Source: Pyrinomonadaceae bacterium
Lineage (GTDB): Bacteria > Acidobacteriota > Blastocatellia > Pyrinomonadales > Pyrinomonadaceae
Length of the DNA stretch: 24,000 nt
Assembly: GCA_041394795.1 (NCBI GenBank)
Contig: JAWKHN010000007.1
Span: 184,254 to 208,253, forward strand
Direction of reading: 5' to 3'
A program made the translations under genes and the position numbers. Shown piece by piece: positions 2,676-16,535 of the stretch. Within the stretch, counting starts at the first letter, position 1, and each line of letters begins with the position of its first letter. A model generated the notes under the pieces. The model made no database searches. It saw only the letters and a program-made list of their open reading frames with translations, and was not told where the DNA came from.

Positions 2676-4328
2676 CTACAGGATAACAGGCTTGACCGCC
2701 TCATCGCCAAGCGGAGGTTTTGGGAATCTGCGCAAAAGGAACGGGAGCGATAGGACGGTCAACACGAGCGAGAACCAAGCGATCCACTCCCCGAATCTTA
2801 CAAACGGAGTGATTTCGCCCGTAGATTTTCGCACCGGCCAAACTCGAACCGCCTCGCTATAGCTTTTGGCGGTATCCGAAACAGCGCCAAATTCATCGAT
2901 ATAGCCGGTGATTCCGACATTCGTGACCCTCAGCAAGGGACGTCTGGTTTCCGCCGCCCGAAAAGCCGCGCTCGCGAGATGCTGACGCAGAACCGGCGTC
3001 GGGCCGAGATAGCCATCGTTTGTCATCTCAACCAGCAAATCCGCACCGTTTTTTACGAACTCCCTTGAAAGCGAAGCAAAATGTGATTCAAAACAAATCA
3101 TGATGCCCGCCTTCGCGTTTCCAAAAGGAAGCAGATCGTATTCTTCCCCAAACGAAAACCTGCCGACCATCGGCGGGATCAATTCCTGCGCGAATTCGGG
3201 CAGAGGAACGAATTCCCCAAAAGGCAGTAGATGAATCTTGTCATACTGCGCGAGTTTCTTGCCTCCCTTTGAAACCAATACGGCGGAGTTGAAATACCCG
3301 TATTCGCGTCTTCTATCGGGCTCGGCGGAATTAAACAATACCGATACGTCGTTGTTCCGTGCAAAATCGTTGATGAACGTTTGGAACTGTAGATCTTCTT
3401 CGTATTGAAAATTCATCGGAGATTCGGGAAAGACAAGCGTGACGGGTTTATCCACCGGAAACTTTCCCGAGGCGCGGGCATCCCGTATCGCCTTTTTCCC
3501 GATCTCGGCCTGCCTTGCTCGGAGCTCCCCCCATTTTCTCATGTTGAGACCGCTCATGGGGATGTTTGGCTGAAGCGCTACAACCACCGATTCGGTGTCA
3601 TGAAAATTCTTGAATTCTTCCGTATTTCCGCCAGGGCCGAGCATGAAAGCGATTCCGGATATCGCCGCAATCGGAAAAAATCCAAGCGCGGCGAATGCGA
3701 TCGAAGGTGCGGATTCAGACTTGCGTTTAAGGAACGCGGCAATCGGCCAAGCCAGGCCGGCATTGACGGTCATAACCAGAAAACTGACAAAATTAACCCC
3801 GCCCAATGCCCCAAGTCGTACCAACGGGCCGAAAGCCTGCGAGTATCCGACCGTATTCCAGCTATTGCCGGTTAAATTCAAACGCAGAAACTCAAGCGCT
3901 ACCCAAATAAACGGCAAAAACCAAACCGCCGTTATGCCGTATCTGCGCACCGCCAAACCAAACAAAGCGACGGCAAAACCAAAGAATATCGACACGACGG
4001 ACGTCGCGATCAGCAATAGAAAATACGTCAGGATCACCGGAAACCCGGCGTAAGTGATCGGCGCGAATGTTAGCCACCAAACCGATAGGCTAAAGAAACA
4101 AACCCCAAACAACCAACCGGCTAGAAAAGAACGGACGAACGAAAACGGTTCATCCAAAATCGCCAGAATCAGCGGAATGAATGCGACAAACGCCAGCACC
4201 GAAATCTCCCATCCGGGAAATGCCGCAGCCAGCAACAACCCGCTAAGCAGCGAACAGCCGGCGAGCCGCCAGCCGGGTAATGAGCCCCGAATCGTTTTCC
4301 AGCACTTTGAAACAAATCCCACTTCCAT
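2676..4328 (-). CDS. lnt: Apolipoprotein N-acyltransferase: polytopic N-terminal membrane domain plus a C-terminal CN-hydrolase domain.
   Basis: This is a 550-aa ORF. About 7 hydrophobic helices occur in the first ~230 aa. A nitrilase/CN-hydrolase-like domain follows (VVALQPNIP..., LVFPESP, HLLPFGEFVP, AGIMICFESHF, TNDGYLG), then a final TM helix (WIAWFSLVLTVLSLPFLL). Confidence 0.85.
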   Translation of the reverse strand: MEVGFVSKCWKTIRGSLPGWRLAGCSLLSGLLLAAAFPGWEISVLAFVAFIPLILAILDEPFSFVRSFLAGWLFGVCFFSLSVWWLTFAPITYAGFPVILTYFLLLIATSVVSIFFGFAVALFGLAVRRYGITAVWFLPFIWVALEFLRLNLTGNSWNTVGYSQAFGPLVRLGALGGVNFVSFLVMTVNAGLAWPIAAFLKRKSESAPSIAFAALGFFPIAAISGIAFMLGPGGNTEEFKNFHDTESVVVALQPNIPMSGLNMRKWGELRARQAEIGKKAIRDARASGKFPVDKPVTLVFPESPMNFQYEEDLQFQTFINDFARNNDVSVLFNSAEPDRRREYGYFNSAVLVSKGGKKLAQYDKIHLLPFGEFVPLPEFAQELIPPMVGRFSFGEEYDLLPFGNAKAGIMICFESHFASLSREFVKNGADLLVEMTNDGYLGPTPVLRQHLASAAFRAAETRRPLLRVTNVGITGYIDEFGAVSDTAKSYSEAVRVWPVRKSTGEITPFVRFGEWIAWFSLVLTVLSLPFLLRRFPKPPLGDEAVKPVIL

Positions 4329-6937: not shown

Positions 6938-7012
6938 TGGCGACCCGTACGGGACTCGAACCCGTGTTGCCGCCGTGAAAGGGCGGTGTCCTAACCACTA
7001 GACGAACGGGTC
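6938..7012 (-). tRNA. tRNA-Glu, anticodon UUC, with CCA encoded.
   Basis: The reverse complement is GACCCGUUCGUCUAGUGGUUAGGACACCGCCCUUUCACGGCGGCAACACGGGUUCGAGUCCCGUACGGGUCGCCA. The acceptor stem is GACCCGU/ACGGGUC. The anticodon stem is CCGCC/GGCGG with loop CUUUCAC. The T-arm is ACGGG-UUCGAGU-CCCGU. The sequence is collinear with E. coli tRNA-Glu (UCGUCUAG...GGACACCGCCCUUUCACGGCGG). Confidence 0.93.
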
Positions 7013-7538: not shown

Positions 7539-10244
7539 ATGAGCAATTTAAAAAGAGTTTTTTTGATCGACAGCATGTCGCACATTTTCAGGGCGTTTTT
7601 CGCTCCCATGGGGATGCGTCAGGAGCCGTTAAGAAATAGCAGCGGGCAGATTACCCAAGCCGTCTTTGTGTTTACAAACATGCTTCGAAAGTTGATCGCG
7701 GATGAAAACCCGGATTATGTCGCCGCCATTTTCGACACTCCGGAGCCGACCTTCAGACACGAGGCATTTGAGGATTACAAAGCCAACCGCGAGGAAATGC
7801 CGGAGGATCTCGCGACTCAGCTTCCCTATATCGAGAGGGTTTGCGAAGCGCTCAACATACCGATTCTGCGGATGCCCGGTTATGAAGCCGATGACATCAT
7901 CGGAACGCTCGCCAAACAATGCGAGAAAGAGAAACTTCAAGCGGTTATCGTTTCGAACGACAAGGATCTCTGCCAACTCGTCAAGGATCCGTACGTGATC
8001 TGCATGCGGCAAAATTCGCAGAACATTCGTCGCAAAACGCCGGTACCGCCGGTCGAATGGTGCGACGAGGCGTGGGTTTTAAAGAAGTTCGAGCTCCCTC
8101 CCGACAAAATAATCGACTATCTCGGCTTGATGGGAGACTCGATCGACAACATCCCGGGAGCACCCGGAATTGGCGCCAAGGGCGCCCTCAAAATCATTCA
8201 GGAATTCGGCTCCGCCGAGGAAGCGATGGCCAACGCCGAAAAGGTAAAGCACAAAACCTATCGGGAAAGCCTTCTCAACAATCAGGACATCATCCGGCAG
8301 TCGGTCGAATTGGCGACGATCCACACTCAGGTGCCGGTTGAACTCGATCTTGATCTGCTCAAGCTCGAAGAACCCAACCGGCAAAAGGCCTACGAGCTTT
8401 TCCGCGAGCTTGAGTTCAACACGCTGACGCGCGAATTCGCGGATGCGGCGCCGCTTTTTGACAGCAGCGACGAAGTTTCGGGTTCGACAGGCAGGACGTA
8501 CAACATCATCAAAACCCGTCCTGATTTGGACAAACTGGTTCGGCGCCTTTTTGAAGTCGATAAATGGAGCTTTCACTGCGATCTTGATGGCGAGGCGTTT
8601 TCGGGCTCATACACGACGCCTGAGCCGGTCGGATTGGCGATAAGCTTTGCGCCCGGGGTTTCAACATACATCGATCTGAAGAATTTCGAAGGCGGCAAAG
8701 AGGAGGCTCTTGGCCCGTTGGGCGACATTCTTGCAAACGGATTTCTTGAGAAAACGACATACGACTATAAATGCTCGCTGGCGTCGCTTTCGCGTTTGGG
8801 AATTCATCCCGAAGCGGTTGCCGACGATCTATTGATCGCCGCATATCTCATCGATTCCGGACGTCGAAATTATGAGCTTCGAACTCTTGCCCAACAGTTT
8901 CTCGAACAGGAAATCTCCCCCGAAATTCCGAACGGTTGGAGCGAATCACAATATCGAACGGCGGAGAACGCAGATTTTTCGTTTCAACTGACACCGATCC
9001 TTCGAGGGCAAATCGAAACCGACGATCTTTCCCGAGTTTACGATGAAATCGAAATGCCGTTGATTCCGATCCTATGTGATATGGAAATGCTCGGAATGAA
9101 GGTCGATAAAAGCGTTTTGAAGGAAACCTCCGAGTTTTTGAGCGTAAAGCTCGCGGCGCTGTCGAAATCGATTTTCGAACTCGCTGGACAGGAATTCAAC
9201 ATCAATTCCCCAAAGCAGGTTGGGGAAGTGCTTCAGGATCTGAATATCGAAACGAAGTACAAAACTCCGACCGGCAAAATATCGACCAGCAAGGACGCGC
9301 TGTTTGAGATCGGCCAAACATATCCGATCGCGAATGAAATCGTTGAATACCGCGAACTAGACAAACTGAAATCAACCTACGCGGATTCGCTGCCGCAATT
9401 GATTCGCGAAGACGGCCGTATCCACGGCACTCTGAATCAAACGGTTGCTGCAACGGGGCGACTGAGTTCGACCGATCCCAATCTGCAGAACATCCCGATA
9501 AGAACCGAAATCGGCAAGCAGATTCGAAAGGCGTTTATTGCCGATGAAGGAAAAATCCTGGTTTCGGCCGACTATTCGCAGTTGGAGTTGCGGATCATCG
9601 CCCACATTACGGGCGACGAAGTGATGCGCGAGGCTTTCAAAAACAACGAGGACATCCACTCCAAAACCGCTCAATTGGTATTTGGCGCGACTTCAGAGGA
9701 GGAGCTCAAGGAAAAACGCCGGTTGGCGAAGATCGTGAATTTTGGAATCGCCTATGCCGTCGAGGCGTTTGGGCTTTCGCAAAGAGTCGGTATTTCGAGG
9801 ACGGAAGCAAAGGAAGTGATCGCCGAGTATTTTCGTACCTACAAGGGAATCAAGAAATATATGGACGAAACCCCTGAAGTCGCACGCGAACAGGGCTATG
9901 TTTCGACGCTTTACGGACGACGGAGATATCTGCCTTCGATCACCGAAAGAAACTTCGCTCTTCGTGCGAGGGCCGAACGCGAAGCGATCAACATGCCGAT
10001 TCAGGGAACGGCGAGCGATATCGTAAAGATCGCGATGCTGCGTGTCGATAAGGCGCTGAAAAAGGAGAAACTCGAGGCGCGGATGTTGATGCAGGTCCAT
10101 GACGAATTGCTTATCGAGGCGCCGATTGAAGAGCTGGAGAAGGTTCGCGATTTGCTCGTCAGGGAAATGGAAGCGGCGGCGACGCTTGAAGTTCCCTTGA
10201 TCGCAGAAACGGGTTCGGGGCAAAACTGGATGGAATTGAAATAG
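7539..10244 (+). CDS. polA: DNA polymerase I (901 aa): 5'-3' exonuclease, 3'-5' exo-like domain and family A polymerase domain.
   Basis: I place the start at ATG 7539 (MSNLKRVFLIDSMSHIFRAFFA, the typical PolI 5'-nuclease N-terminus). The 80 upstream codons in the ORF track are non-homologous. Polymerase motifs are present: A (VSADYSQLELRIIAH), B (RRLAKIVNFGIAYAVEAFGLS) and C (LMQVHDELLIEAP). Confidence 0.93.
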   Translation: MSNLKRVFLIDSMSHIFRAFFAPMGMRQEPLRNSSGQITQAVFVFTNMLRKLIADENPDYVAAIFDTPEPTFRHEAFEDYKANREEMPEDLATQLPYIERVCEALNIPILRMPGYEADDIIGTLAKQCEKEKLQAVIVSNDKDLCQLVKDPYVICMRQNSQNIRRKTPVPPVEWCDEAWVLKKFELPPDKIIDYLGLMGDSIDNIPGAPGIGAKGALKIIQEFGSAEEAMANAEKVKHKTYRESLLNNQDIIRQSVELATIHTQVPVELDLDLLKLEEPNRQKAYELFRELEFNTLTREFADAAPLFDSSDEVSGSTGRTYNIIKTRPDLDKLVRRLFEVDKWSFHCDLDGEAFSGSYTTPEPVGLAISFAPGVSTYIDLKNFEGGKEEALGPLGDILANGFLEKTTYDYKCSLASLSRLGIHPEAVADDLLIAAYLIDSGRRNYELRTLAQQFLEQEISPEIPNGWSESQYRTAENADFSFQLTPILRGQIETDDLSRVYDEIEMPLIPILCDMEMLGMKVDKSVLKETSEFLSVKLAALSKSIFELAGQEFNINSPKQVGEVLQDLNIETKYKTPTGKISTSKDALFEIGQTYPIANEIVEYRELDKLKSTYADSLPQLIREDGRIHGTLNQTVAATGRLSSTDPNLQNIPIRTEIGKQIRKAFIADEGKILVSADYSQLELRIIAHITGDEVMREAFKNNEDIHSKTAQLVFGATSEEELKEKRRLAKIVNFGIAYAVEAFGLSQRVGISRTEAKEVIAEYFRTYKGIKKYMDETPEVAREQGYVSTLYGRRRYLPSITERNFALRARAEREAINMPIQGTASDIVKIAMLRVDKALKKEKLEARMLMQVHDELLIEAPIEELEKVRDLLVREMEAAATLEVPLIAETGSGQNWMELK

Positions 10245-10267
10245 TTTTTTCCCAATATTCTTTTTGG

Positions 10268-10298
10268 AGCCGGATTTGAATCATCCGGCTTTTTTTTT
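10268..10298 (+). terminator. Rho-independent terminator of polA.
   Basis: Stem agccggat (10268-10275) pairs with atccggct (10283-10290) around a 7-nt loop, followed by T8 (10291-10298). Confidence 0.8.
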
Positions 10299-10362
10299 GG
10301 TTTTCGGAATAATCTCATTCGGTTTTCGAATTGATGACATTGTGAAACTAAACGGATTGACT

Positions 10363-10869
10363 ATGTACAAGGCAAACGCAACGCTGCTCGAGCTACTGAT
10401 AGCGGAGTTTTCTCGGATTCCGACCTTGCTTGCGCTTCTAACCGACGAGATTTATTTGGAGGGGACGGAAGAGATTTCATCGGTCGGAGTTCACATCAGG
10501 CACAATTTGGATTTTGGGGATGCGCTGATATATGGACTGGAAAACGGGATCGTTGATTATGCCGCCCGTCGCCGTGATCCGTTTACCGAAGGTTCTCGTG
10601 AGGTCGCGCTCAAGCGCACGGAAGAGTTGATTGGAAAATTGAGGCGGATGAGGGAAAGAGAACTTGGCTCGATCGCGGTGCGTTCGGAATTGATCGAAGG
10701 CGAGCATTTGATTTCGACAGCCGATCGCGAAATTGAGTTTGTCCTAAGCCATACGATCCATCATTACGCATTGATCGTCGAACGTCTGCGCGGCAAAGGC
10801 ATCGATCTGCCAAGAGATTTTGGCGTCTCGCATTCGACTCTGCGGTTCCGCCAAGCGACTTCCGGTTGA
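10363..10869 (+). CDS. DinB-superfamily (DinB/YfiT-like four-helix bundle) protein, 168 aa.
   Basis: I place the start at ATG 10363 (MYKANATLLELL...). The upstream part of the ORF-track ORF overlaps the polA terminator. Histidine-containing motifs VHIRHNLDF and LSHTIHHYALIVERL resemble the metal-binding His triad of DinB-like proteins. The call is based on motif resemblance only. Confidence 0.55.
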   Translation: MYKANATLLELLIAEFSRIPTLLALLTDEIYLEGTEEISSVGVHIRHNLDFGDALIYGLENGIVDYAARRRDPFTEGSREVALKRTEELIGKLRRMRERELGSIAVRSELIEGEHLISTADREIEFVLSHTIHHYALIVERLRGKGIDLPRDFGVSHSTLRFRQATSG

Positions 10870-10980
10870 GACAGCGAAAACCTCTTTTGGTTTTCATTCG
10901 AGGTTTATGAATTCCTGGCCGGATTTTCCAACCGCGAAATGCAGGATACATTTGGGAACAAACAACTTTAAGAGGAAATA

Positions 10981-11388
10981 ATGGAAGGAAAGGGATTGAA
11001 AGTTGCCAGTTGGGTGCTGGCGGTGGTTGCGTCGGTGATCTATGTGATCACGCTGTTTTTCAAGTTTACGGCCGCGCCTGAATCCGTGCGTTTGTTTACA
11101 AGACTCGCCGGGCCGGAAATGGAAGGACTTATGAGGGTCGGAACGGGAGTTATGGAACTCATCACATCGATCCTTCTGCTGATACCAAAATCGAGGCCGT
11201 TCGGGGCGTTGGTCTCGCTTGGTGTGATTTCGGGCGCGATTCTCAGTCACTTGTTCGTTTTGGGAATCGTGGTTGAAGATGACGGCGGCGCATTGTTTTT
11301 AATGGCGTGCATCATCTTCACCTGTTCGCCGGGGCTTTTGTTTTTGCACCGGAACAGTTTTCTAAGTCTTCTCAACAAGGGAACCTAA
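10981..11388 (+). CDS. DoxX-like small integral membrane protein (135 aa, 4 TM).
   Basis: A good SD precedes the start (aagAGGAaataATG). Four hydrophobic helices are present. The pattern FKFTAAPESVRLFTRLAGPE...GTGVMELITSILLLIPKSRPFGALVSLGVISGAILSHL is typical of the DoxX/DoxX-like family. Confidence 0.65.
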   Translation: MEGKGLKVASWVLAVVASVIYVITLFFKFTAAPESVRLFTRLAGPEMEGLMRVGTGVMELITSILLLIPKSRPFGALVSLGVISGAILSHLFVLGIVVEDDGGALFLMACIIFTCSPGLLFLHRNSFLSLLNKGT

Positions 11389-11445
11389 CCCTATTCGCTT
11401 GAGGCAAGGCCCCAAACCGTTGGCCTTTGAGTTAGACTTTACTGA

Positions 11446-13086
11446 ATGTCTTCACTGGCCGATTTTCTTGGAAAGGTATTGAGCCTCGATTTTGCCGGAA
11501 TCGAGACGCTTTCCGTTACCGCGATTTTCTTTTTATTCTTTTTCGCGACGTTTGTAACCGAAGACGGCGCCTGTCTTGCAGCCGGAGCATTGGCGGGACA
11601 GGGGCGAGTTTCGCTTTCACTCGCAATCTCCGCCTGCTTTTTCGGGATCGTTGTCGGCGACGTCGGACTATATGCGATCGGCAGGGTTTCGGGAACCGCC
11701 CTTCATTCGTCCAAACTCTTTCGACGATTCGTCTCGATTGAAGCGCTCGAAACCGCGTCCGACTGGCTCGAACAACGCGGAGCGACGGCGATATTTATCA
11801 GCCGCTTTGTAGCCGGGCTTCGTCTCCCGACATATCTCGCCGCTGGTTTCCTAAAGACCAACTTCCTAAAGTTTCTATTCTATTTCCTCGTCGCCGCCGC
11901 GGTTTGGACACCGGCGTTCGTTGGCGCGGCCGCCTACCTACAGAAGTTCGTTTCGCCAAAATACATACTTCTCTCGATACTCGCGCTGTATATCGCGCTT
12001 CATTTCGCTTTCAATCTATCGACCAGGCGTCGAAGGCGATTGTTGCTCGGGCGTTTGAAACGCATTTCGAATTGGGAATTCTGGCCGCTCGCGGTCTTTT
12101 ACGCTCCTGTCGTCATATATATCCTTCTTCTTGCCGTAAAGCACAGAAGCATCACCGTCTTTACCTGCGCCAATCCCTCAATTCCCGGGGGCGGTTTTGT
12201 CGGAGAATCCAAGGAAGAGATTTACAGGGGTCTTGAGGAAAATGGTGCGAACAGCGGTTTTATGCTTCAACGAGCGTTTCTCGAACCTGAAACGGATCCA
12301 GATAAACGGCTCACCCGCGCGAAGGAAGCGCTTGAATCGAATCGGCTTTCCTTCCCCTTGGTCGTAAAACCCGATGCCGGAGAACGCGGAAAAGGCGTGA
12401 AAATCGCGGGAAGTCTCGAAGAATTCGAAACCGTTGTGGTCTCGACCGAAAAGGCGCTGATAATACAGGAATTTGTTGACGGCCCCGAAATTTCGGTTTT
12501 TGCGGTTTCGAATCCGGAAACGGGCAAAACCGAAATTTTCTCAGCGACAAAAAAGTCGATGCCTTTCGTTATCGGAGATGGAATACGGACGCTTGAGGAT
12601 CTGATCCTCGACGATCCGCGTGCCGTCGCGATTGCCGGAAAGTACTTCGAGGCAAATGCCCAAAGGCTTCATGAAATCCCAAAACCCGGTGAAAAGGTAC
12701 GGCTCGTACAAATCGGGACGCATTCCCGCGGCGCCGTTTTTCTCGAAGGCGAGGAATTTGCGACGCCCGATGTCGAAAGCGCGATCGAAGGAATCGTCCG
12801 AAACTACGAGGGATTCTACTTTGGCAGATTTGATCTAAGGGCGGAAGACGAACAAGCGATCAAGGAAGGTCGATTCAAAATCATCGAACTCAACGGAGTA
12901 ACGAGCGAATCGACAAACATCTACGACCCTCGCTACGGCCTCTTGGATGCCTATTCGATACTTTTCAGGCAATGGTCAAAAGCCTTTGAGATCGGAGATA
13001 TCAATTACAAGGCCGGATGCTCGAAGACCCGTTTGCGCGATCTGTTTAAGCCGGTCGCAAGGACGACCCCGAAGAAGGGCTTGTAG
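11446..13086 (+). CDS. Fusion protein (546 aa): N-terminal DedA/VTT (SNARE-associated) membrane domain, polybasic linker, an extra TM helix, and a C-terminal ATP-grasp ligase domain.
   Basis: DedA signatures are FVTEDGACLAAGALAG, GDVGLYAIGRVSG and ISRFVAGLRLPTYLAAG (aa ~35-135). The linker is STRRRRRLLLGRLKR, and the extra TM helix is WPLAVFYAPVVIYILLLAV. ATP-grasp signatures are FPLVVKPDAGERGKGVKI, ALIIQEFVDGPEISVF and GRFDLRA...FKIIELNGVTSESTNIYDP. Confidence 0.8.
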   Translation: MSSLADFLGKVLSLDFAGIETLSVTAIFFLFFFATFVTEDGACLAAGALAGQGRVSLSLAISACFFGIVVGDVGLYAIGRVSGTALHSSKLFRRFVSIEALETASDWLEQRGATAIFISRFVAGLRLPTYLAAGFLKTNFLKFLFYFLVAAAVWTPAFVGAAAYLQKFVSPKYILLSILALYIALHFAFNLSTRRRRRLLLGRLKRISNWEFWPLAVFYAPVVIYILLLAVKHRSITVFTCANPSIPGGGFVGESKEEIYRGLEENGANSGFMLQRAFLEPETDPDKRLTRAKEALESNRLSFPLVVKPDAGERGKGVKIAGSLEEFETVVVSTEKALIIQEFVDGPEISVFAVSNPETGKTEIFSATKKSMPFVIGDGIRTLEDLILDDPRAVAIAGKYFEANAQRLHEIPKPGEKVRLVQIGTHSRGAVFLEGEEFATPDVESAIEGIVRNYEGFYFGRFDLRAEDEQAIKEGRFKIIELNGVTSESTNIYDPRYGLLDAYSILFRQWSKAFEIGDINYKAGCSKTRLRDLFKPVARTTPKKGL

Positions 13087-13188
13087 TCGGGGATACAATG
13101 GAGTTGTAGGAAAAAAATAATCGTTGGCTTTTCGTGAAGATCTCATACCCGCAAGTGGGCCTTCGGATTGAGAATTCGAGATTGGAAG

Positions 13189-13926
13189 ATGTGCATAATT
13201 TTTGTCGCGTATCAGATAAGACATGACTACCCGTTGGTGTTGATCGCCAATCGCGACGAGTTCTATTCGCGACCAACCGCCCCCGCCAAATATTGGACAG
13301 ATCATCCGTATATATATGCGGGCAGGGACCTTATCGGAAACGGCACGTGGCTTGGGGTGACAAACGGAGGGAGGTTTGCGGCGGTTACAAACCATAGAAA
13401 TCCCAAAATGCCAAAAGGCAGTTCAACCCGAGGTTATCTCGTCTCGGACTTTCTCGCTTCGAAAACCTCATGCGAGGACTATTTGGCTAAAGTCGAATCC
13501 GAGGCCGCAAAATACAGCGGTTTTAATCTTCTCGTCGGAGAGGTCTCAAACGACGAAGATGAACTTTGGTACTACTCGAATCGATTCGATGCCGAACCCC
13601 GCAAACTCCATCGCGGAATCTATGGTCTGAGCAACGCGTTTTTGGACACCCCTTGGCCAAAGGTGGAAAAGGGTAGAAGAAAATTCGAAGACTTGCTTTC
13701 CGACATGCATTTCTCGACGGATTCTTATTTCGAACTTCTTTCGAACGAGGAACGAGCGCATTGCGATGAACTTCCCGACACCGGAATCGGTCAAACCGCC
13801 GAACACGCGCTATCGTCAATATTTATTCGAACCCCGGAATACGGAACGCGATCTTCAACCGTGCTTACAATCGATTCGGATTTCATTCCAAGCCTTATCG
13901 AGAAGGTTCACGACTCGGCCGAATAG
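13189..13926 (+). CDS. NRDE-family (TANGO2/DUF833-like) protein, 245 aa.
   Basis: I place the start at ATG 13189, preceded by ggaag. The protein starts MCIIFVAY (Cys2, as in N-terminal-nucleophile-type folds). It contains the literal family signature LVLIANRDEFYSRPT, followed by GRDLIGNGTWLGVTNGGRFAAVTNHRN. Confidence 0.8.
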   Translation: MCIIFVAYQIRHDYPLVLIANRDEFYSRPTAPAKYWTDHPYIYAGRDLIGNGTWLGVTNGGRFAAVTNHRNPKMPKGSSTRGYLVSDFLASKTSCEDYLAKVESEAAKYSGFNLLVGEVSNDEDELWYYSNRFDAEPRKLHRGIYGLSNAFLDTPWPKVEKGRRKFEDLLSDMHFSTDSYFELLSNEERAHCDELPDTGIGQTAEHALSSIFIRTPEYGTRSSTVLTIDSDFIPSLIEKVHDSAE

Positions 13927-13954
13927 TTCCCGCTGGTTCCTTCAAAGCGGCCGC

Positions 13955-15805
13955 TTATTCCTGTTCCTCTGTGATCCCGGCGGCCTGCCTTTGCCGCTCA
14001 AAATGTCCGGCGATCTCGATCGCGGTCGTCGCGCCGACGATCGGTTTTAGGTCGTTTACGCTTGCCTTTGCGATTCTCTCGATCGAGCCAAACGTCTTGA
14101 GAAGCCTTCTTCGCCGAGTCGGTCCGACGCCGGGTATGAGTTCAAGCTCGGATGAAAAGTCGCGCATCTCTCGCCGTTTCCTATGATATTGAATCGCGAC
14201 CCGGTGCGTCTCGTCGCGAATTTCCTGAATCAGGCGAAACATCGGCGAGGTTGGGTCAAACTCAACCGGCTCTTCCTCTCGGCCGTAAACGATTAGGTGG
14301 GAAATCTCGCTGTGCCTTTTTGGCGGTTTTACAAGCCCGACCAACGGGATCGCGGCGAGTTCCAGGTCGCGCATCGCCGCCGCGGCGGCCGAAAGCTGTC
14401 CCTTTCCGCCATCGATAAAGATCAGGTTTGGCAATGCCTTGTTTTCTTCGAGCTTTCTTCTGTATCTTCTGAAAACCGCTTCGTTCATCGAACCGAAATC
14501 ATCCTGACCCTCGATCGTCTTGATTTTATAGCGCCGGTATTCGCTGCGGTTTGGTTTTCCGTTTTCGAACGCGACTATTCCGGCGACGTTTTCAGATCCC
14601 TGAATGTTTGAGATGTCGAAAGACTCTATTAACTTTGGAAGGTGCGGCAACTCGAGTGTTTCCTGCATGTCCTGCAAGAGCTTTTCTGTTTTTGGCTTTA
14701 AGACGCGGAACCTCTGTTCGTATGCCACCCGCGCGTTCATCTCGACGAGTTCGATCATTCGCTTTTTCTCGCCTTTTTGCGGCACCAAAATCTTCACCAC
14801 ACGACCCCGTCTTTCGGTAAGCGCCTTCTCAAGAGTTTTCCGATCGCCGAAATCCAGCGGCACACTGATCTCAAGAGGCACATAATCGGTCGAGTAGTAT
14901 TGCGACAACACCTCGCCGAGAAAATCCGCGACTTCGAAATCCTCTTCTTCGAGGTCTTCCCAAAAGAACTCGCGCCTTCCGATAACTTTGCCCTCGCGCA
15001 TCGTGAAGAGCTGAAGCGCGAGACTGTTTCCCTTTTTGTAAAAGCCAAAGATATCGACATCCCTCTCCGGCGATGTCGCCATCTTTTGGTTGGCCTCGAG
15101 TGCCAGGACAGTTTTGGAAAGATCCCTGTATTTCGCCGCGATCTCAAAATTCTCAATCTCGGCAAAATGCCACATCCTCGCCTCAAGCTCGGCCGCGAGT
15201 TCCTGATTCTTGCCATCCATCAAAAGAATCGCATCGCTTACCGCCTCTTTGTATTCGGCAGGACTGCACAGGCTTCTTACGCACGGACCGAGGCATCGTT
15301 TGAGATGGTATTCAAGACACGGCCGCTGCATCTTGCCGTCGAGTTCGAGCGTGCATGTCCGTAGCTGAAATGTACGATTGATCAGATTGAGAGTCCGTCT
15401 CGCGAGATTCGCCGGCAAAAAGGGTCCGTAGTATTTGGCGCCGTCTTTGAGGAGTTTTCTTGTGATCACAACCTTTGGATACTCTTCTTTTGTGATCTTC
15501 AAATGCGGATATTGCTTGTCGTCCTTTAGAAAGACGTTGTATCGCGGCTTGTGTTTCTTGACGAGGTTGGCCTCGAGTACGAGCGCCTCGACCTCGTTGT
15601 CAACAACGATGAATTCAAAGTCAGCGATACGCTCCATCAAACGACGCGTTTTGTAATCCTTGTGTTTCGTCGATTGGAAATACTGCCTGACCCTGTTGCG
15701 GAGGTTCTTCGCCTTGCCGATATAGATGATCCTGCCCTTCTCATTCTTGTGTATGTAAACACCGGGTTTCGCTGGAAGGTTCTTGAGTTTTTCGGCGAGT
15801 TCCAT
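13955..15805 (-). CDS. uvrC: Excinuclease ABC subunit C (616 aa).
   Basis: An N-terminal GIY-YIG domain is present (KPGVYIHKNEKGRIIYIGKAKNLRNRVRQYF). A UVR-domain region and an RNase H-like endonuclease region follow. The C-terminus carries (HhH)2: LELIPGVGPTRRRRLLKTFGSIERIAKASVNDL. Confidence 0.93.
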   Translation of the reverse strand: MELAEKLKNLPAKPGVYIHKNEKGRIIYIGKAKNLRNRVRQYFQSTKHKDYKTRRLMERIADFEFIVVDNEVEALVLEANLVKKHKPRYNVFLKDDKQYPHLKITKEEYPKVVITRKLLKDGAKYYGPFLPANLARRTLNLINRTFQLRTCTLELDGKMQRPCLEYHLKRCLGPCVRSLCSPAEYKEAVSDAILLMDGKNQELAAELEARMWHFAEIENFEIAAKYRDLSKTVLALEANQKMATSPERDVDIFGFYKKGNSLALQLFTMREGKVIGRREFFWEDLEEEDFEVADFLGEVLSQYYSTDYVPLEISVPLDFGDRKTLEKALTERRGRVVKILVPQKGEKKRMIELVEMNARVAYEQRFRVLKPKTEKLLQDMQETLELPHLPKLIESFDISNIQGSENVAGIVAFENGKPNRSEYRRYKIKTIEGQDDFGSMNEAVFRRYRRKLEENKALPNLIFIDGGKGQLSAAAAAMRDLELAAIPLVGLVKPPKRHSEISHLIVYGREEEPVEFDPTSPMFRLIQEIRDETHRVAIQYHRKRREMRDFSSELELIPGVGPTRRRRLLKTFGSIERIAKASVNDLKPIVGATTAIEIAGHFERQRQAAGITEEQE

Positions 15806-15851: not shown

Positions 15852-15879
15852 GTTCCAAGTTCCATGTTCCAAGTTCCAG
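15852..15879. repeat. Tandem heptad array, 4 x GTTCCAN (GTTCCAA GTTCCAT GTTCCAA GTTCCAG).
   Basis: I read this directly from the sequence. It lies 47-74 nt upstream of the uvrC ATG and abuts copy 1 of the 171-bp repeat. GTTCCAAG recurs just after copy 1 (~16057), ATTCCAT just after copy 2, and GTTCCAA upstream of the Rad50-like gene (~17549). Confidence 0.9.
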
Positions 15880-16047
15880 AGTTGAGTCGACTTTAAGGGG
15901 TCGATCTTCTTCCAAAATCCGGAAATTCCTATTCGGACGCGTAGCGTCACGTAGATTTTAGCCGTGGATGGAGCGGCTTTGCGCGGAATCCACGGTAAAC
16001 GCAAAAACAACGTTCGCGCCGGGTACCGGCGCGGAGAAACGCCCGTA
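15877..16047. repeat. Copy 1 of a ~171-bp non-coding direct repeat.
   Basis: The stretch cagagttgagtc...ggcgcggagaaacgcccgta aligns without gaps to 16212-16382, with 11 mismatches in 171 nt (~94% identity). It contains conserved hairpins: gacgc-gta-gcgtc, ccgtggat...atccacgg, and cgcgccgg-gta-ccggcgcg. Confidence 0.9.
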
Positions 16048-16190
16048 TTTGCTGCGTTCCAAGCGCCAATGATTTGCAGGGATACTGTTTGCGGCTCGCA
16101 CCCGGGGGTTGCTACCCCTGGCTATTATCCCCTTGACGGCCGCGCGACAGAAGTGGAAATTCCGAACATTTTTACAACTTATTCCTTTGA

Positions 16191-16240
16191 ATCGACTTTT
16201 TGGAGTGCCCTCAGAGTTGAGTCCACTCTAAAAAGTCGAT
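16191..16240. repeat. Long inverted repeat or stem-loop: 17-bp stem including one G-T/G-U pair, with a 16-nt loop.
   Basis: The left arm atcgactttttggagtg (16191-16207) pairs with cactctaaaaagtcgat (16224-16240). The loop is ccctcagagttgagtc. The loop and right arm are the first 29 nt of repeat copy 2. The left arm is unique sequence that resembles gtcgactttaaggggtc in copy 1. Confidence 0.8.
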
Positions 16241-16382
16241 CTTCTTCCAAAATCCGGAAATTACTATTCGGACGCGTAGCGTCACGTAGATTTTAGCCGT
16301 GGTTGAAGCGGCTTTGCGCGGAATCCACTGTAAACATAAAAACAACGTTCGCGCCGGGTACCGGCGCGGAGAAACGCCCGTA
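16212..16382. repeat. Copy 2 of the ~171-bp non-coding direct repeat, offset 335 bp from copy 1.
   Basis: Evidence is as for copy 1. Weaker similarity (~60%) continues for ~30 nt past both copies: gcgttccaagcgccaatga-tttgcagg versus gcattccatcgcccatggtacttgctag. Confidence 0.9.
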
Positions 16383-16535
16383 ATTCTGGCATTCCATCGC
16401 CCATGGTACTTGCTAGCGGAGCTAACTCGCTCATTGAATTTTTGGTTTTCCAGCGTCTCCGGAGGATTTGCTTCATGAATCGTTTCCGGCATCGGCTTCC
16501 AGGTTGTAAAATTCGTTTTTGCTTTTGAGGATTTT

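Follow-up and report, generated by a model that had tools for sequence, protein, structure and literature searches.

Proteins of the DedA family carry a VTT membrane domain, and the lipids that they transport or scramble include undecaprenyl phosphate (UndP) and phosphatidylethanolamine (PE) (PMC10127716; bioRxiv 10.64898/2026.09.20.752871). Described members such as UptA/PA4029 (UndP), PetA (PE) and YqjA/YghB have about 200 amino acids (aa) and a single domain, and the only fusions listed in a survey of the family are to PAP2, rhodanese and disulfide oxidoreductase, not to ATP-grasp (PMC10127716). Here we describe a gene in which a DedA/VTT domain is joined to an ATP-grasp ligase, at positions 11446-13086 of the forward strand of a 24,000-nucleotide (nt) stretch from a Pyrinomonadaceae bacterium (contig JAWKHN010000007.1); this whole stretch is called the window below. 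The protein has the VTT domain, the acidic pair and the R-x5-R arginines in common with the DedA proteins named above, but it is fused to the ligase and lies under their equivalog cutoffs. Both domains are of known kinds; what is new is a membrane-anchored ATP-grasp family that is found in lipid gene clusters and is fused to DedA.

The ligase half can be compared with the G-domain of CphA and with CphA2, with the D-Ala-D-Ala and D-Ala-D-Lac ligases, and with the ligase half of GshAB. All of these share with it the fold, the catalytic Lys, the Gly-rich loop and the R-x-D and E-x-N motifs, and the known enzymes lengthen an aminoacyl or peptidyl substrate at its carboxyl end. However, they are soluble and possess a complete N-terminal domain, whereas the window family has a membrane anchor and probably a reduced N-domain.

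In terms of overall architecture the closest parallel is MprF, in which one membrane protein joins a cytoplasmic headgroup-modifying synthase to a lipid-translocating domain. The genes for MprF often lie beside a periplasmic hydrolase gene, a situation that parallels the long hydrolase-DedA-ligase forms described below. The mechanisms are different, as MprF uses aminoacyl-tRNA and has a GNAT-like synthase and a flippase unrelated to DedA, while the window protein is predicted to use ATP via an acyl-phosphate. The parallel with MprF had already been drawn in a preliminary description of this locus; it stands as an architectural analogy but does not extend to the domains themselves, since neither the LPG_synthase_TM nor the aminoacyl-tRNA-dependent synthase domain of MprF appeared in a Pfam scan even at E<=1.

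Aminolipids are widespread, examples being the lipids of ornithine, lysine, glycine and glutamine, and we know of no enzymes for several of their headgroup elaborations, nor of an inner-membrane aminolipid transporter. OlsB (PF13444) and OlsA (PF01553) define amide-linked aminolipid synthesis, and OlsF, a fused OlsB/OlsA-type synthase, provides a precedent for enzyme fusion in aminolipid pathways (PMC11631085). These enzymes are of interest here as they share gene clusters with the ligase family; OlsB and OlsA are, however, acyltransferases dependent on acyl-acyl carrier protein and not ATP-dependent ligases, and neither an ATP-grasp nor a DedA component of aminolipid synthesis is described in the literature searched, which also holds no aminolipid data for Blastocatellia or Chloracidobacterium. 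A further point of comparison is the lipid II amidotransferase MurT-GatD, an ATP-dependent acyl-phosphate ligase that acts on a lipid-anchored carboxylate together with a hydrolase-type partner, a pairing that resembles the one between the ligase and TANGO2 described below. Unlike the window protein, MurT (with a Mur-ligase fold) and GatD (a class I glutaminase) are soluble proteins, and they act on an undecaprenyl-linked substrate.

The two halves of the fusion protein and the anchor between them

One ATG-initiated open reading frame (ORF) spans the gene in the ORF listing and encodes a product of 546 aa. At least 120 homologues span the full length (524-574 aa, with 50-59% identity and mostly above 90% coverage), and VTT and ATP-grasp lie within one ORF at 84 of 85 genome loci. 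The single polypeptide proposed in the preliminary description is thus borne out, and a frameshift or misassembly as the source of the fusion is ruled out. The GC content of the gene resembles that of the remainder of the window; with the conserved residues and the conserved fusion, this led us to dismiss a pseudo-enzyme or a recent foreign insertion as well. The motifs quoted for the first part of the protein were all found (FVTEDG at aa 36-41, GD..LY.IGR at 71-80, RF..GLR.P at 120-128 and RRRRR at 194-198), and so were those of the ligase half (VVKPDAGERGKGV at aa 306-318, IIQEFV at 339-344, IIELNG at 479-484 and NIYDP at 491-495). Both domain calls are correct, given that both Pfam families exceed their cutoffs: VTT_dom covers aa 44-161 (E 1.5e-11, 45.3 bits, cutoff 33.9) and the RimK ATP-grasp family covers aa 290-346 (22.9 bits, cutoff 21), six further ATP-grasp families being just below cutoff. 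An AlphaFold2 model of the protein, built from an alignment of 82 sequences (A1), has a predicted local distance difference test score (pLDDT) of 86.4 and a predicted template modelling score (pTM) of 0.70.

In the DedA half, residues E39, D72, R120 and R126 are kept in 82 of 82 relatives in alignment A1, and D40 in 81 of them. Going by the helix pattern of the model, this half would consist of N-terminal amphipathic helices, a first re-entrant hairpin with TEDG (E39/D40) at its tip, a transmembrane (TM) helix, cytoplasmic helices, a second re-entrant hairpin (R120 to R126) and two TM helices. In YqjA, E39/D51 and R130/R136 form a lipid-binding site, and an acidic pair with R-x5-R arginines forms this site in both YqjA and UptA (bioRxiv 10.64898/2026.09.20.752871). 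R120 and R126 have the same R-x5-R spacing as R130/R136 of YqjA, and the acidic residues and arginines of the window protein probably correspond to the four residues of YqjA, the counterpart of D51 being a presumed one. The best NCBIfam matches of the DedA half are UptA and PRK10847, both far under cutoff; an UptA-type UndP transporter (NF052604) was rejected at 42.1 bits against an equivalog cutoff of 250.

The preliminary description placed a linker and one more TM helix between the two domains. A hydrophobic helix is indeed present, and this segment has the highest hydropathy of the whole protein. W210, E211, W213 and P221 are found in 82 of 82 relatives (A1), and the model shows short kinked helices (215-218 and 220-233), with the kink at the invariant P221 and basic residues on either side. 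Six standalone ligases (P0148, P0201, P0207, P0232, P0258 and P0261) start with the same basic stretch, W-E-F-W-P motif and hydrophobic helix. Because the standalone ligases keep it, we assign the helix to the ATP-grasp module as its own anchor, and it probably does not cross the membrane: as an ATP-grasp enzyme needs ATP, a monotopic or re-entrant position would be expected. The N-terminal helices of YqjA are periplasmic and the region near its residue 100 is cytoplasmic (bioRxiv 10.64898/2026.09.20.752871). If this topology is mapped onto the model helices, the N-terminus of the window protein would be outside, the first hairpin would enter from outside and the second from inside, and the last TM helix and the polybasic stretch would end on the cytoplasmic side.

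The fold of the C-terminal half is clear. In a Foldseek comparison with the PDB the best match is the G-domain of CphA1 (7wae, E 7.8e-9), then CphA2, Ddl/VanA-type ligases and GshAB; all 50 matches listed of 351 (E<=0.001) are ATP-grasp ligases with a probability of 1.00. K308, G312-E313-R314-G315, Q341, E348, D463 and N483 are present in 82 of 82 sequences of alignment A1 and R461 and E481 in 81, and the same catalytic residues are invariant in an alignment of standalone ligases (A2). By analogy with Ddl-type enzymes we take these to be the phosphate Lys, the Gly-rich loop, the adenine/ribose Glu, and the R-x-D and E-x-N motifs for Mg2+ and the acyl-phosphate. Residue conservation and fold together predict a catalytically intact ligase. 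Only about 70 aa separate the end of the anchor (around aa 235) from the Lys strand (aa 305-309), and this short spacing suggests that the pre-ATP-grasp N-domain, usually of about 100 aa, is reduced here.

Likeness in sequence alone to solved structures is weak and confined to the central domain: a profile search of the PDB gave a central-domain match to Ddl only (E 3e-7). The NCBIfam scores are 31.3 for cyanophycin synthetase (cutoff 850), 17.8 for rimK_fam (143), 15-18 for Ddl (about 245) and 14.7 for LysX (276), and the named ATP-grasp enzymes that we considered (cyanophycin synthetase, RimK, Ddl, LysX, PylC, GshB-type) all miss their family cutoffs. Since the structural matches are clear, the sequence likeness is weak and there is no named equivalog, we regard the ligase as a divergent ATP-grasp family, whose nearest ligase matches include Ddl and a pseudomurein ATP-grasp of archaea. 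The preliminary description did not recognise the protein as a characterised enzyme, and this agrees with the databases, where it goes under generic names ('VTT domain-containing', 'DedA family', 'alpha/beta fold hydrolase' or 'carboxylate--amine ligase'), and with the literature searched, which holds no description linking DedA, this ATP-grasp, OlsB or TANGO2.

Family spread and conserved gene neighbourhood

The fusion is not unusual, as had first been thought, but belongs to a large multi-phylum family with several architectures. An exhaustive phmmer search of 50%-identity cluster representatives with the ligase half (aa 226-546) gave 2378 representatives at E<=1e-3 and 875 at E<=1e-30; the ligase module is present in at least five phyla. 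Among the best 150 matches there are 63 proteins with an alpha/beta-hydrolase, VTT and the ligase (about 800-930 aa), 59 with VTT and the ligase, 6 with hydrolase and ligase, and 22 with the ligase alone (about 320-390 aa, some of them fragments). These four architectures and the 875 clusters rule out a rare or unique arrangement. According to the source labels, fused forms are found in Acidobacteriota, Planctomycetota (Saltatorellus ferox), KSB1 and Verrucomicrobiota (Coraliomargarita sp. W4R53, Opitutaceae), and standalone forms in Pseudomonadota (Arenicella chitinivorans, where the protein is named 'carboxylate--amine ligase'); A. chitinivorans, Coraliomargarita sp. W4R53 and S. ferox are cultured. 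When one genome per species was scanned, relatives were present in 292 species, and the 80 best are all Blastocatellia-type Acidobacteriota (Pyrinomonadaceae, Chloracidobacterium, Aridibacter) apart from a few evidently mislabelled metagenome-assembled genomes.

DedA is preceded in the long forms by a GxSxG hydrolase domain, itself behind a signal-peptide-like N-terminus, and no TM segment lies between the hydrolase and DedA. On the topology given above the hydrolase would be periplasmic, the transporter would lie in the membrane and the ligase would be cytoplasmic. One 722-aa protein (P0263, on a 30-kb ENA contig) has a full TANGO2 domain (aa 1-263, E 8e-66) in front of its ligase domain (aa 402-702). 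A second TANGO2-ligase fusion was sought and not found, and P0263 could be genuine or the result of faulty assembly or annotation.

The neighbourhoods were analysed in two ways. A total of 172 sequences (84 genome or lookup loci, 87 standalone-seeded metagenome or lookup loci, and the window) were scanned with hidden Markov models (HMMs) of the cluster members, and every neighbour within 5 kb was clustered in an unbiased manner, without the seed HMMs, at 166 loci, many of them truncated. At these 166 loci TANGO2 is the most frequent neighbour (113 loci), followed by DinB-like (87), OlsB-like N-acyltransferase (85), DoxX-like (77), M48-like (40) and OlsA-like (26) genes, and a separate VTT/DedA gene is present at 16. 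The remaining families occur at 22 loci or fewer each and are unrelated; the next-ranked ones (glycogen debranching, HbpS/cupin, SMP-30, TonB receptor, dehydrogenases, extracytoplasmic function sigma factor, PhaR) were set aside as unrelated synteny. The product of the M48-like gene is small and secreted and shows a weak M48/SprT-like zinc-peptidase motif; the gene frequently comes after that of the ligase (L069 7708-8361 and 39 other loci).

The association can be followed best where at least 4.5 kb is present on both sides of the ligase gene. The 31 VTT-fused loci of this full-flank subset have DinB in 30 cases, DoxX-like in 28, TANGO2 in 27 and OlsB in 25; OlsB accompanies all 17 hydrolase-VTT-fused loci and OlsA 15 of them; and around the 12 standalone ligases we find DinB (11), TANGO2 (9), OlsB (8), DoxX-like (8) and a separate VTT gene (7). 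The neighbouring acyltransferases match OlsB (E 4e-38 to 1e-39) and OlsA (E about 4e-39) over the whole length, with scores under the equivalog cutoffs, and for this reason we leave the amino acid used by the OlsB-like neighbours unassigned.

Three gene arrangements recur. One is OlsB-OlsA-DinB-TANGO2-[hydrolase-DedA-ligase] (e.g. L069, L084); another, in the clade of the window, is DinB-DoxX-[DedA-ligase]-TANGO2 with a convergent OlsB; in the last a divergent OlsB is followed by separate genes in the order DoxX-DinB-DedA-TANGO2-ligase (L104, L126, L157). As DedA and the ligase are often operon partners even where they are not fused, we consider them functionally linked. The cultured A. chitinivorans has the order DinB-TANGO2-ligase-OlsB-OlsA. 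In this species (L089) there is also a separate DedA/VTT gene at 11935-12528, about 4 kb downstream of the ligase cluster and inside a surE-pcm-(DedA)-nlpD-rpoS-type block; it may be unrelated to the cluster. At three other loci (L087 8177-10304, L090 8188-10357 and L091 8111-10247) the ligase is directly followed by assimilatory sulfite reductase (NIR_SIR) and DUF934 genes. These loci represent one lineage (50-53% mutual identity), and the adjacency may be plain synteny or a sulfur link.

Proposed function and rival explanations

From the gene context we tentatively propose that the fusion is a bifunctional membrane-embedded enzyme of an amino-acid-lipid (aminolipid-type) pathway, a deduction to which we would give a little less than an even chance. 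The N-terminus of DedA would be periplasmic and its C-terminus cytoplasmic, and the polybasic stretch and the monotopic anchor would hold the ligase at the cytoplasmic membrane face. There the ligase would phosphorylate a carboxylate with ATP and then join it to the amine of a lipid headgroup. The likeliest carboxylate may be the free alpha-carboxylate of an N-acyl amino acid made by OlsB, since the nearest structural relatives of the ligase all lengthen N-blocked aminoacyl substrates at the carboxyl end; here the lipid would presumably act as carboxylate donor rather than as nucleophile. The product would be an N-acyl-dipeptide or an amide lipid, and the DedA half would either present the lipid headgroup to the active site or flip the product to the outer leaflet. 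TANGO2 might hydrolyse or transfer the corresponding fatty-amide bond, for remodelling or for amine supply. In a wider form the proposal would be a multi-phylum system of lipid-headgroup modification, comprising the ligase, a DedA flippase, TANGO2 as a Cys-Ntn amidase, the DinB-like and DoxX-like proteins and, in some lineages, a periplasmic hydrolase, by which OlsB/OlsA aminolipids would be converted into a new exported class (N-acyl-dipeptide or amide lipids). We hold this wider form to be somewhat less likely.

The family provides a candidate for an ATP-dependent ligase of lipid headgroups, and this candidate is physically joined to a putative flippase. The role of DedA proteins as lipid transporters is actively debated, and a DedA tied to an enzyme of a lipid pathway is a natural handle on substrate specificity. 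TANGO2 is a human disease gene (TANGO2 deficiency disorder) with a disputed function, for which a haem chaperone, an acyl-CoA binder and a Cys-Ntn hydrolase have been put forward. Its crystal structure led to the proposal of a Cys-Ntn hydrolase of fatty-acid derivatives, with the native substrate unknown (PMC13044924). Here TANGO2 is the most conserved neighbour of the ligase and is clustered with N-acyl-amino-acid synthases, which suggests N-acyl amino-acid-type amides as substrates; if this is true, the bacterial clusters would offer the first clue to the native substrate of the TANGO2 family.

There are several points that weigh against the proposed aminolipid pathway. OlsB and OlsA genes are absent from the 24-kb window, where uvrC comes after TANGO2. 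A DinB-TANGO2-ligase triad is found without OlsB or DedA in a gammaproteobacterial lineage (L087, L090, L091), and in Coraliomargarita sp. W4R53 (L172 4478-9580) a DinB-TANGO2-hydrolase/DedA/ligase block lies directly downstream of pgsA-pgpA; the pgsA gene of this locus encodes a CDP-alcohol phosphatidyltransferase, and the context is phosphatidylglycerol (PG) synthesis, not OlsB/OlsA. Because of these loci an aminolipid may not be the universal substrate. In addition, the closest subfamily to the DedA half is the COG0586/UptA type, with its link to UndP (PMC10127716), the monotopic anchoring at the cytoplasmic face is itself deduced from the model, and the TANGO2-ligase fusion P0263, a singleton, was given little weight as Rosetta-stone evidence.

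The Coraliomargarita block, with no OlsB within 7 kb, would fit an MprF-like enzyme, in which the ATP-grasp half activates the carboxylate of a soluble amino acid and attaches the amino acid to PG or PE at a hydroxyl or amine (as an ester or amide, VanA-like), DedA flips the product and the hydrolase of the long forms removes the group. D-Ala-D-Lac ligases are among the structural matches, and PE and PG are bound or transported by DedA proteins (bioRxiv 10.64898/2026.09.20.752871). With N-terminal helices that are periplasmic as in YqjA, the hydrolase, DedA and ligase of the long forms would span three compartments, and the aminoacyl-PG hydrolases next to mprF would parallel such a periplasmic 'eraser' domain. 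We nevertheless consider this explanation unlikely: the pgsA/pgpA linkage is seen at one locus, as opposed to OlsB at 85 of 166, no MprF-type domain was detected in the Pfam scan, and ester formation is rare among ATP-grasp enzymes. A carrier-lipid enzyme seems improbable in our view. Such an enzyme would modify a carboxylate of an envelope precursor bound to undecaprenyl-(pyro)phosphate, e.g. amidate the stem peptide of lipid II or add an amino acid to it, while DedA would flip or recycle the carrier; this agrees with UptA as best NCBIfam match of the membrane half and with the COG0586-type DedAs being UndP flippases (PMC10127716), with Ddl and the pseudomurein ATP-grasp among the nearest ligase matches, and with the frequent M48-like secreted neighbour. 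Yet the UptA score is far below its cutoff, UptA-type proteins bind phospholipids too (bioRxiv 10.64898/2026.09.20.752871), and among the neighbours at the 166 loci the mur, UndP, O-antigen and other cell-wall families are not enriched while OlsB and OlsA are. The preliminary description had left the choice between a membrane lipid and a carrier lipid open. The ligation of a membrane lipid is the part that fits the neighbours (OlsB-like, OlsA-like, TANGO2, separate DedA) and the polyprenyl-phosphate carrier the part that fits them less well; the evidence favours an OlsB-type amino-acid lipid, or a phospholipid in one lineage.

The DinB-like/TANGO2/ATP-grasp triad could also make or recycle a small peptide or a low-molecular-weight thiol in a soluble pathway, with the anchor and DedA serving for localisation or export only. 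The triad loci that lack OlsB and DedA lie beside assimilatory sulfite reductase, proteins of the DinB superfamily and DoxX proteins are frequently linked to thiols, and the structural matches include the glutathione-synthetase part of GshAB. But the hydrophobic anchor is kept even in standalone ligases, DedA, OlsB and OlsA recur as partners across several phyla, and the sulfite-reductase loci are the one lineage in which the adjacency may be plain synteny, so that we see little chance for this explanation. An ATP-grasp of family PF13535 makes acyl-histidines via acyl-phosphate in Legionella (PMC11631085), and by this precedent the ligase could perform an alternative N-acylation, turning a free (3-hydroxy) fatty acid into an acyl-phosphate and condensing it with an amino acid. 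A substrate of this kind would go well with a membrane-anchored enzyme. We find this very improbable, as the co-encoded OlsB-like N-acyltransferase would be duplicated, the ligase misses the PF13535 cutoff (14.5 bits against 27), and the nearest structural relatives use aminoacyl carboxylates.

Features of the window

The gene order in the window is polA, a terminator-like hairpin, DinB_2-like, DoxX/MauE-like, DedA-ligase, TANGO2 and a convergent uvrC (Table 1), and the hairpin parts polA from the block that runs from the DinB-like gene to TANGO2.

Table 1. Coordinates of the fusion gene, its parts and the neighbouring features in the window
Feature	Position	Strand	Basis
DedA(VTT)-ATP-grasp fusion gene, complete	11446..13086	+	ORF; Pfam VTT_dom and RimK above cutoff; at least 120 full-length homologues; model
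DedA/VTT membrane domain, aa 1-193	11446..12024	+	Pfam VTT_dom; conserved residues; modelled helix pattern
Polybasic stretch (RRRRR...RLKR) and WEFWP...P hydrophobic helix, aa 194-235	12025..12150	+	conservation; standalone ligases; hydropathy
ATP-grasp carboxylate-amine ligase catalytic region, aa 236-546	12151..13086	+	Foldseek; conserved residues
Terminator-like hairpin with T-run, after polA	10266..10292	+	10-pair stem, then TTTTTTTGG; consensus match only
DinB_2-like gene	10364..10869	+	Pfam DinB_2 E 5e-4 (below cutoff); cluster-specific HMM E 3e-69
Small four-helix membrane protein, weakly DoxX/MauE-like	10981..11388	+	Pfam DoxX_2 E 1e-3 and MauE E 3e-3, both below cutoff
TANGO2/NRDE-family gene, putative Cys-Ntn hydrolase	13189..13926	+	Pfam TANGO2 E 2.7e-72

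The DinB-like ORF is listed from a TTG at 10264, and the ATG after the hairpin (MYKANATLL) is the likelier start; in a similar manner TANGO2 most likely starts at its ATG (MCIIF) and not at the TTG at 13168. The TANGO2 protein begins with MC...ANRDE, the expected catalytic signature. No sigma-70-like site was found in a promoter scan of 10100-14100, and terminator-like sites in the same region are not above shuffles, the hairpin after polA being the only one that looks convincing.

Elsewhere in the window there are an apolipoprotein N-acyltransferase gene, lnt (2676-4328, reverse strand), and a tRNA-Glu(UUC) gene (6938-7012, reverse strand), both housekeeping genes with no conserved linkage to the cluster. 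The intergenic region between uvrC and sua5, whose repeats have no Rfam match at E<=0.1, contains a 185-nt direct repeat (15877-16061 and 16212-16396, 91% identical, spacing 335 nt) and a 23-nt inverted repeat (16191-16213/16218-16240).

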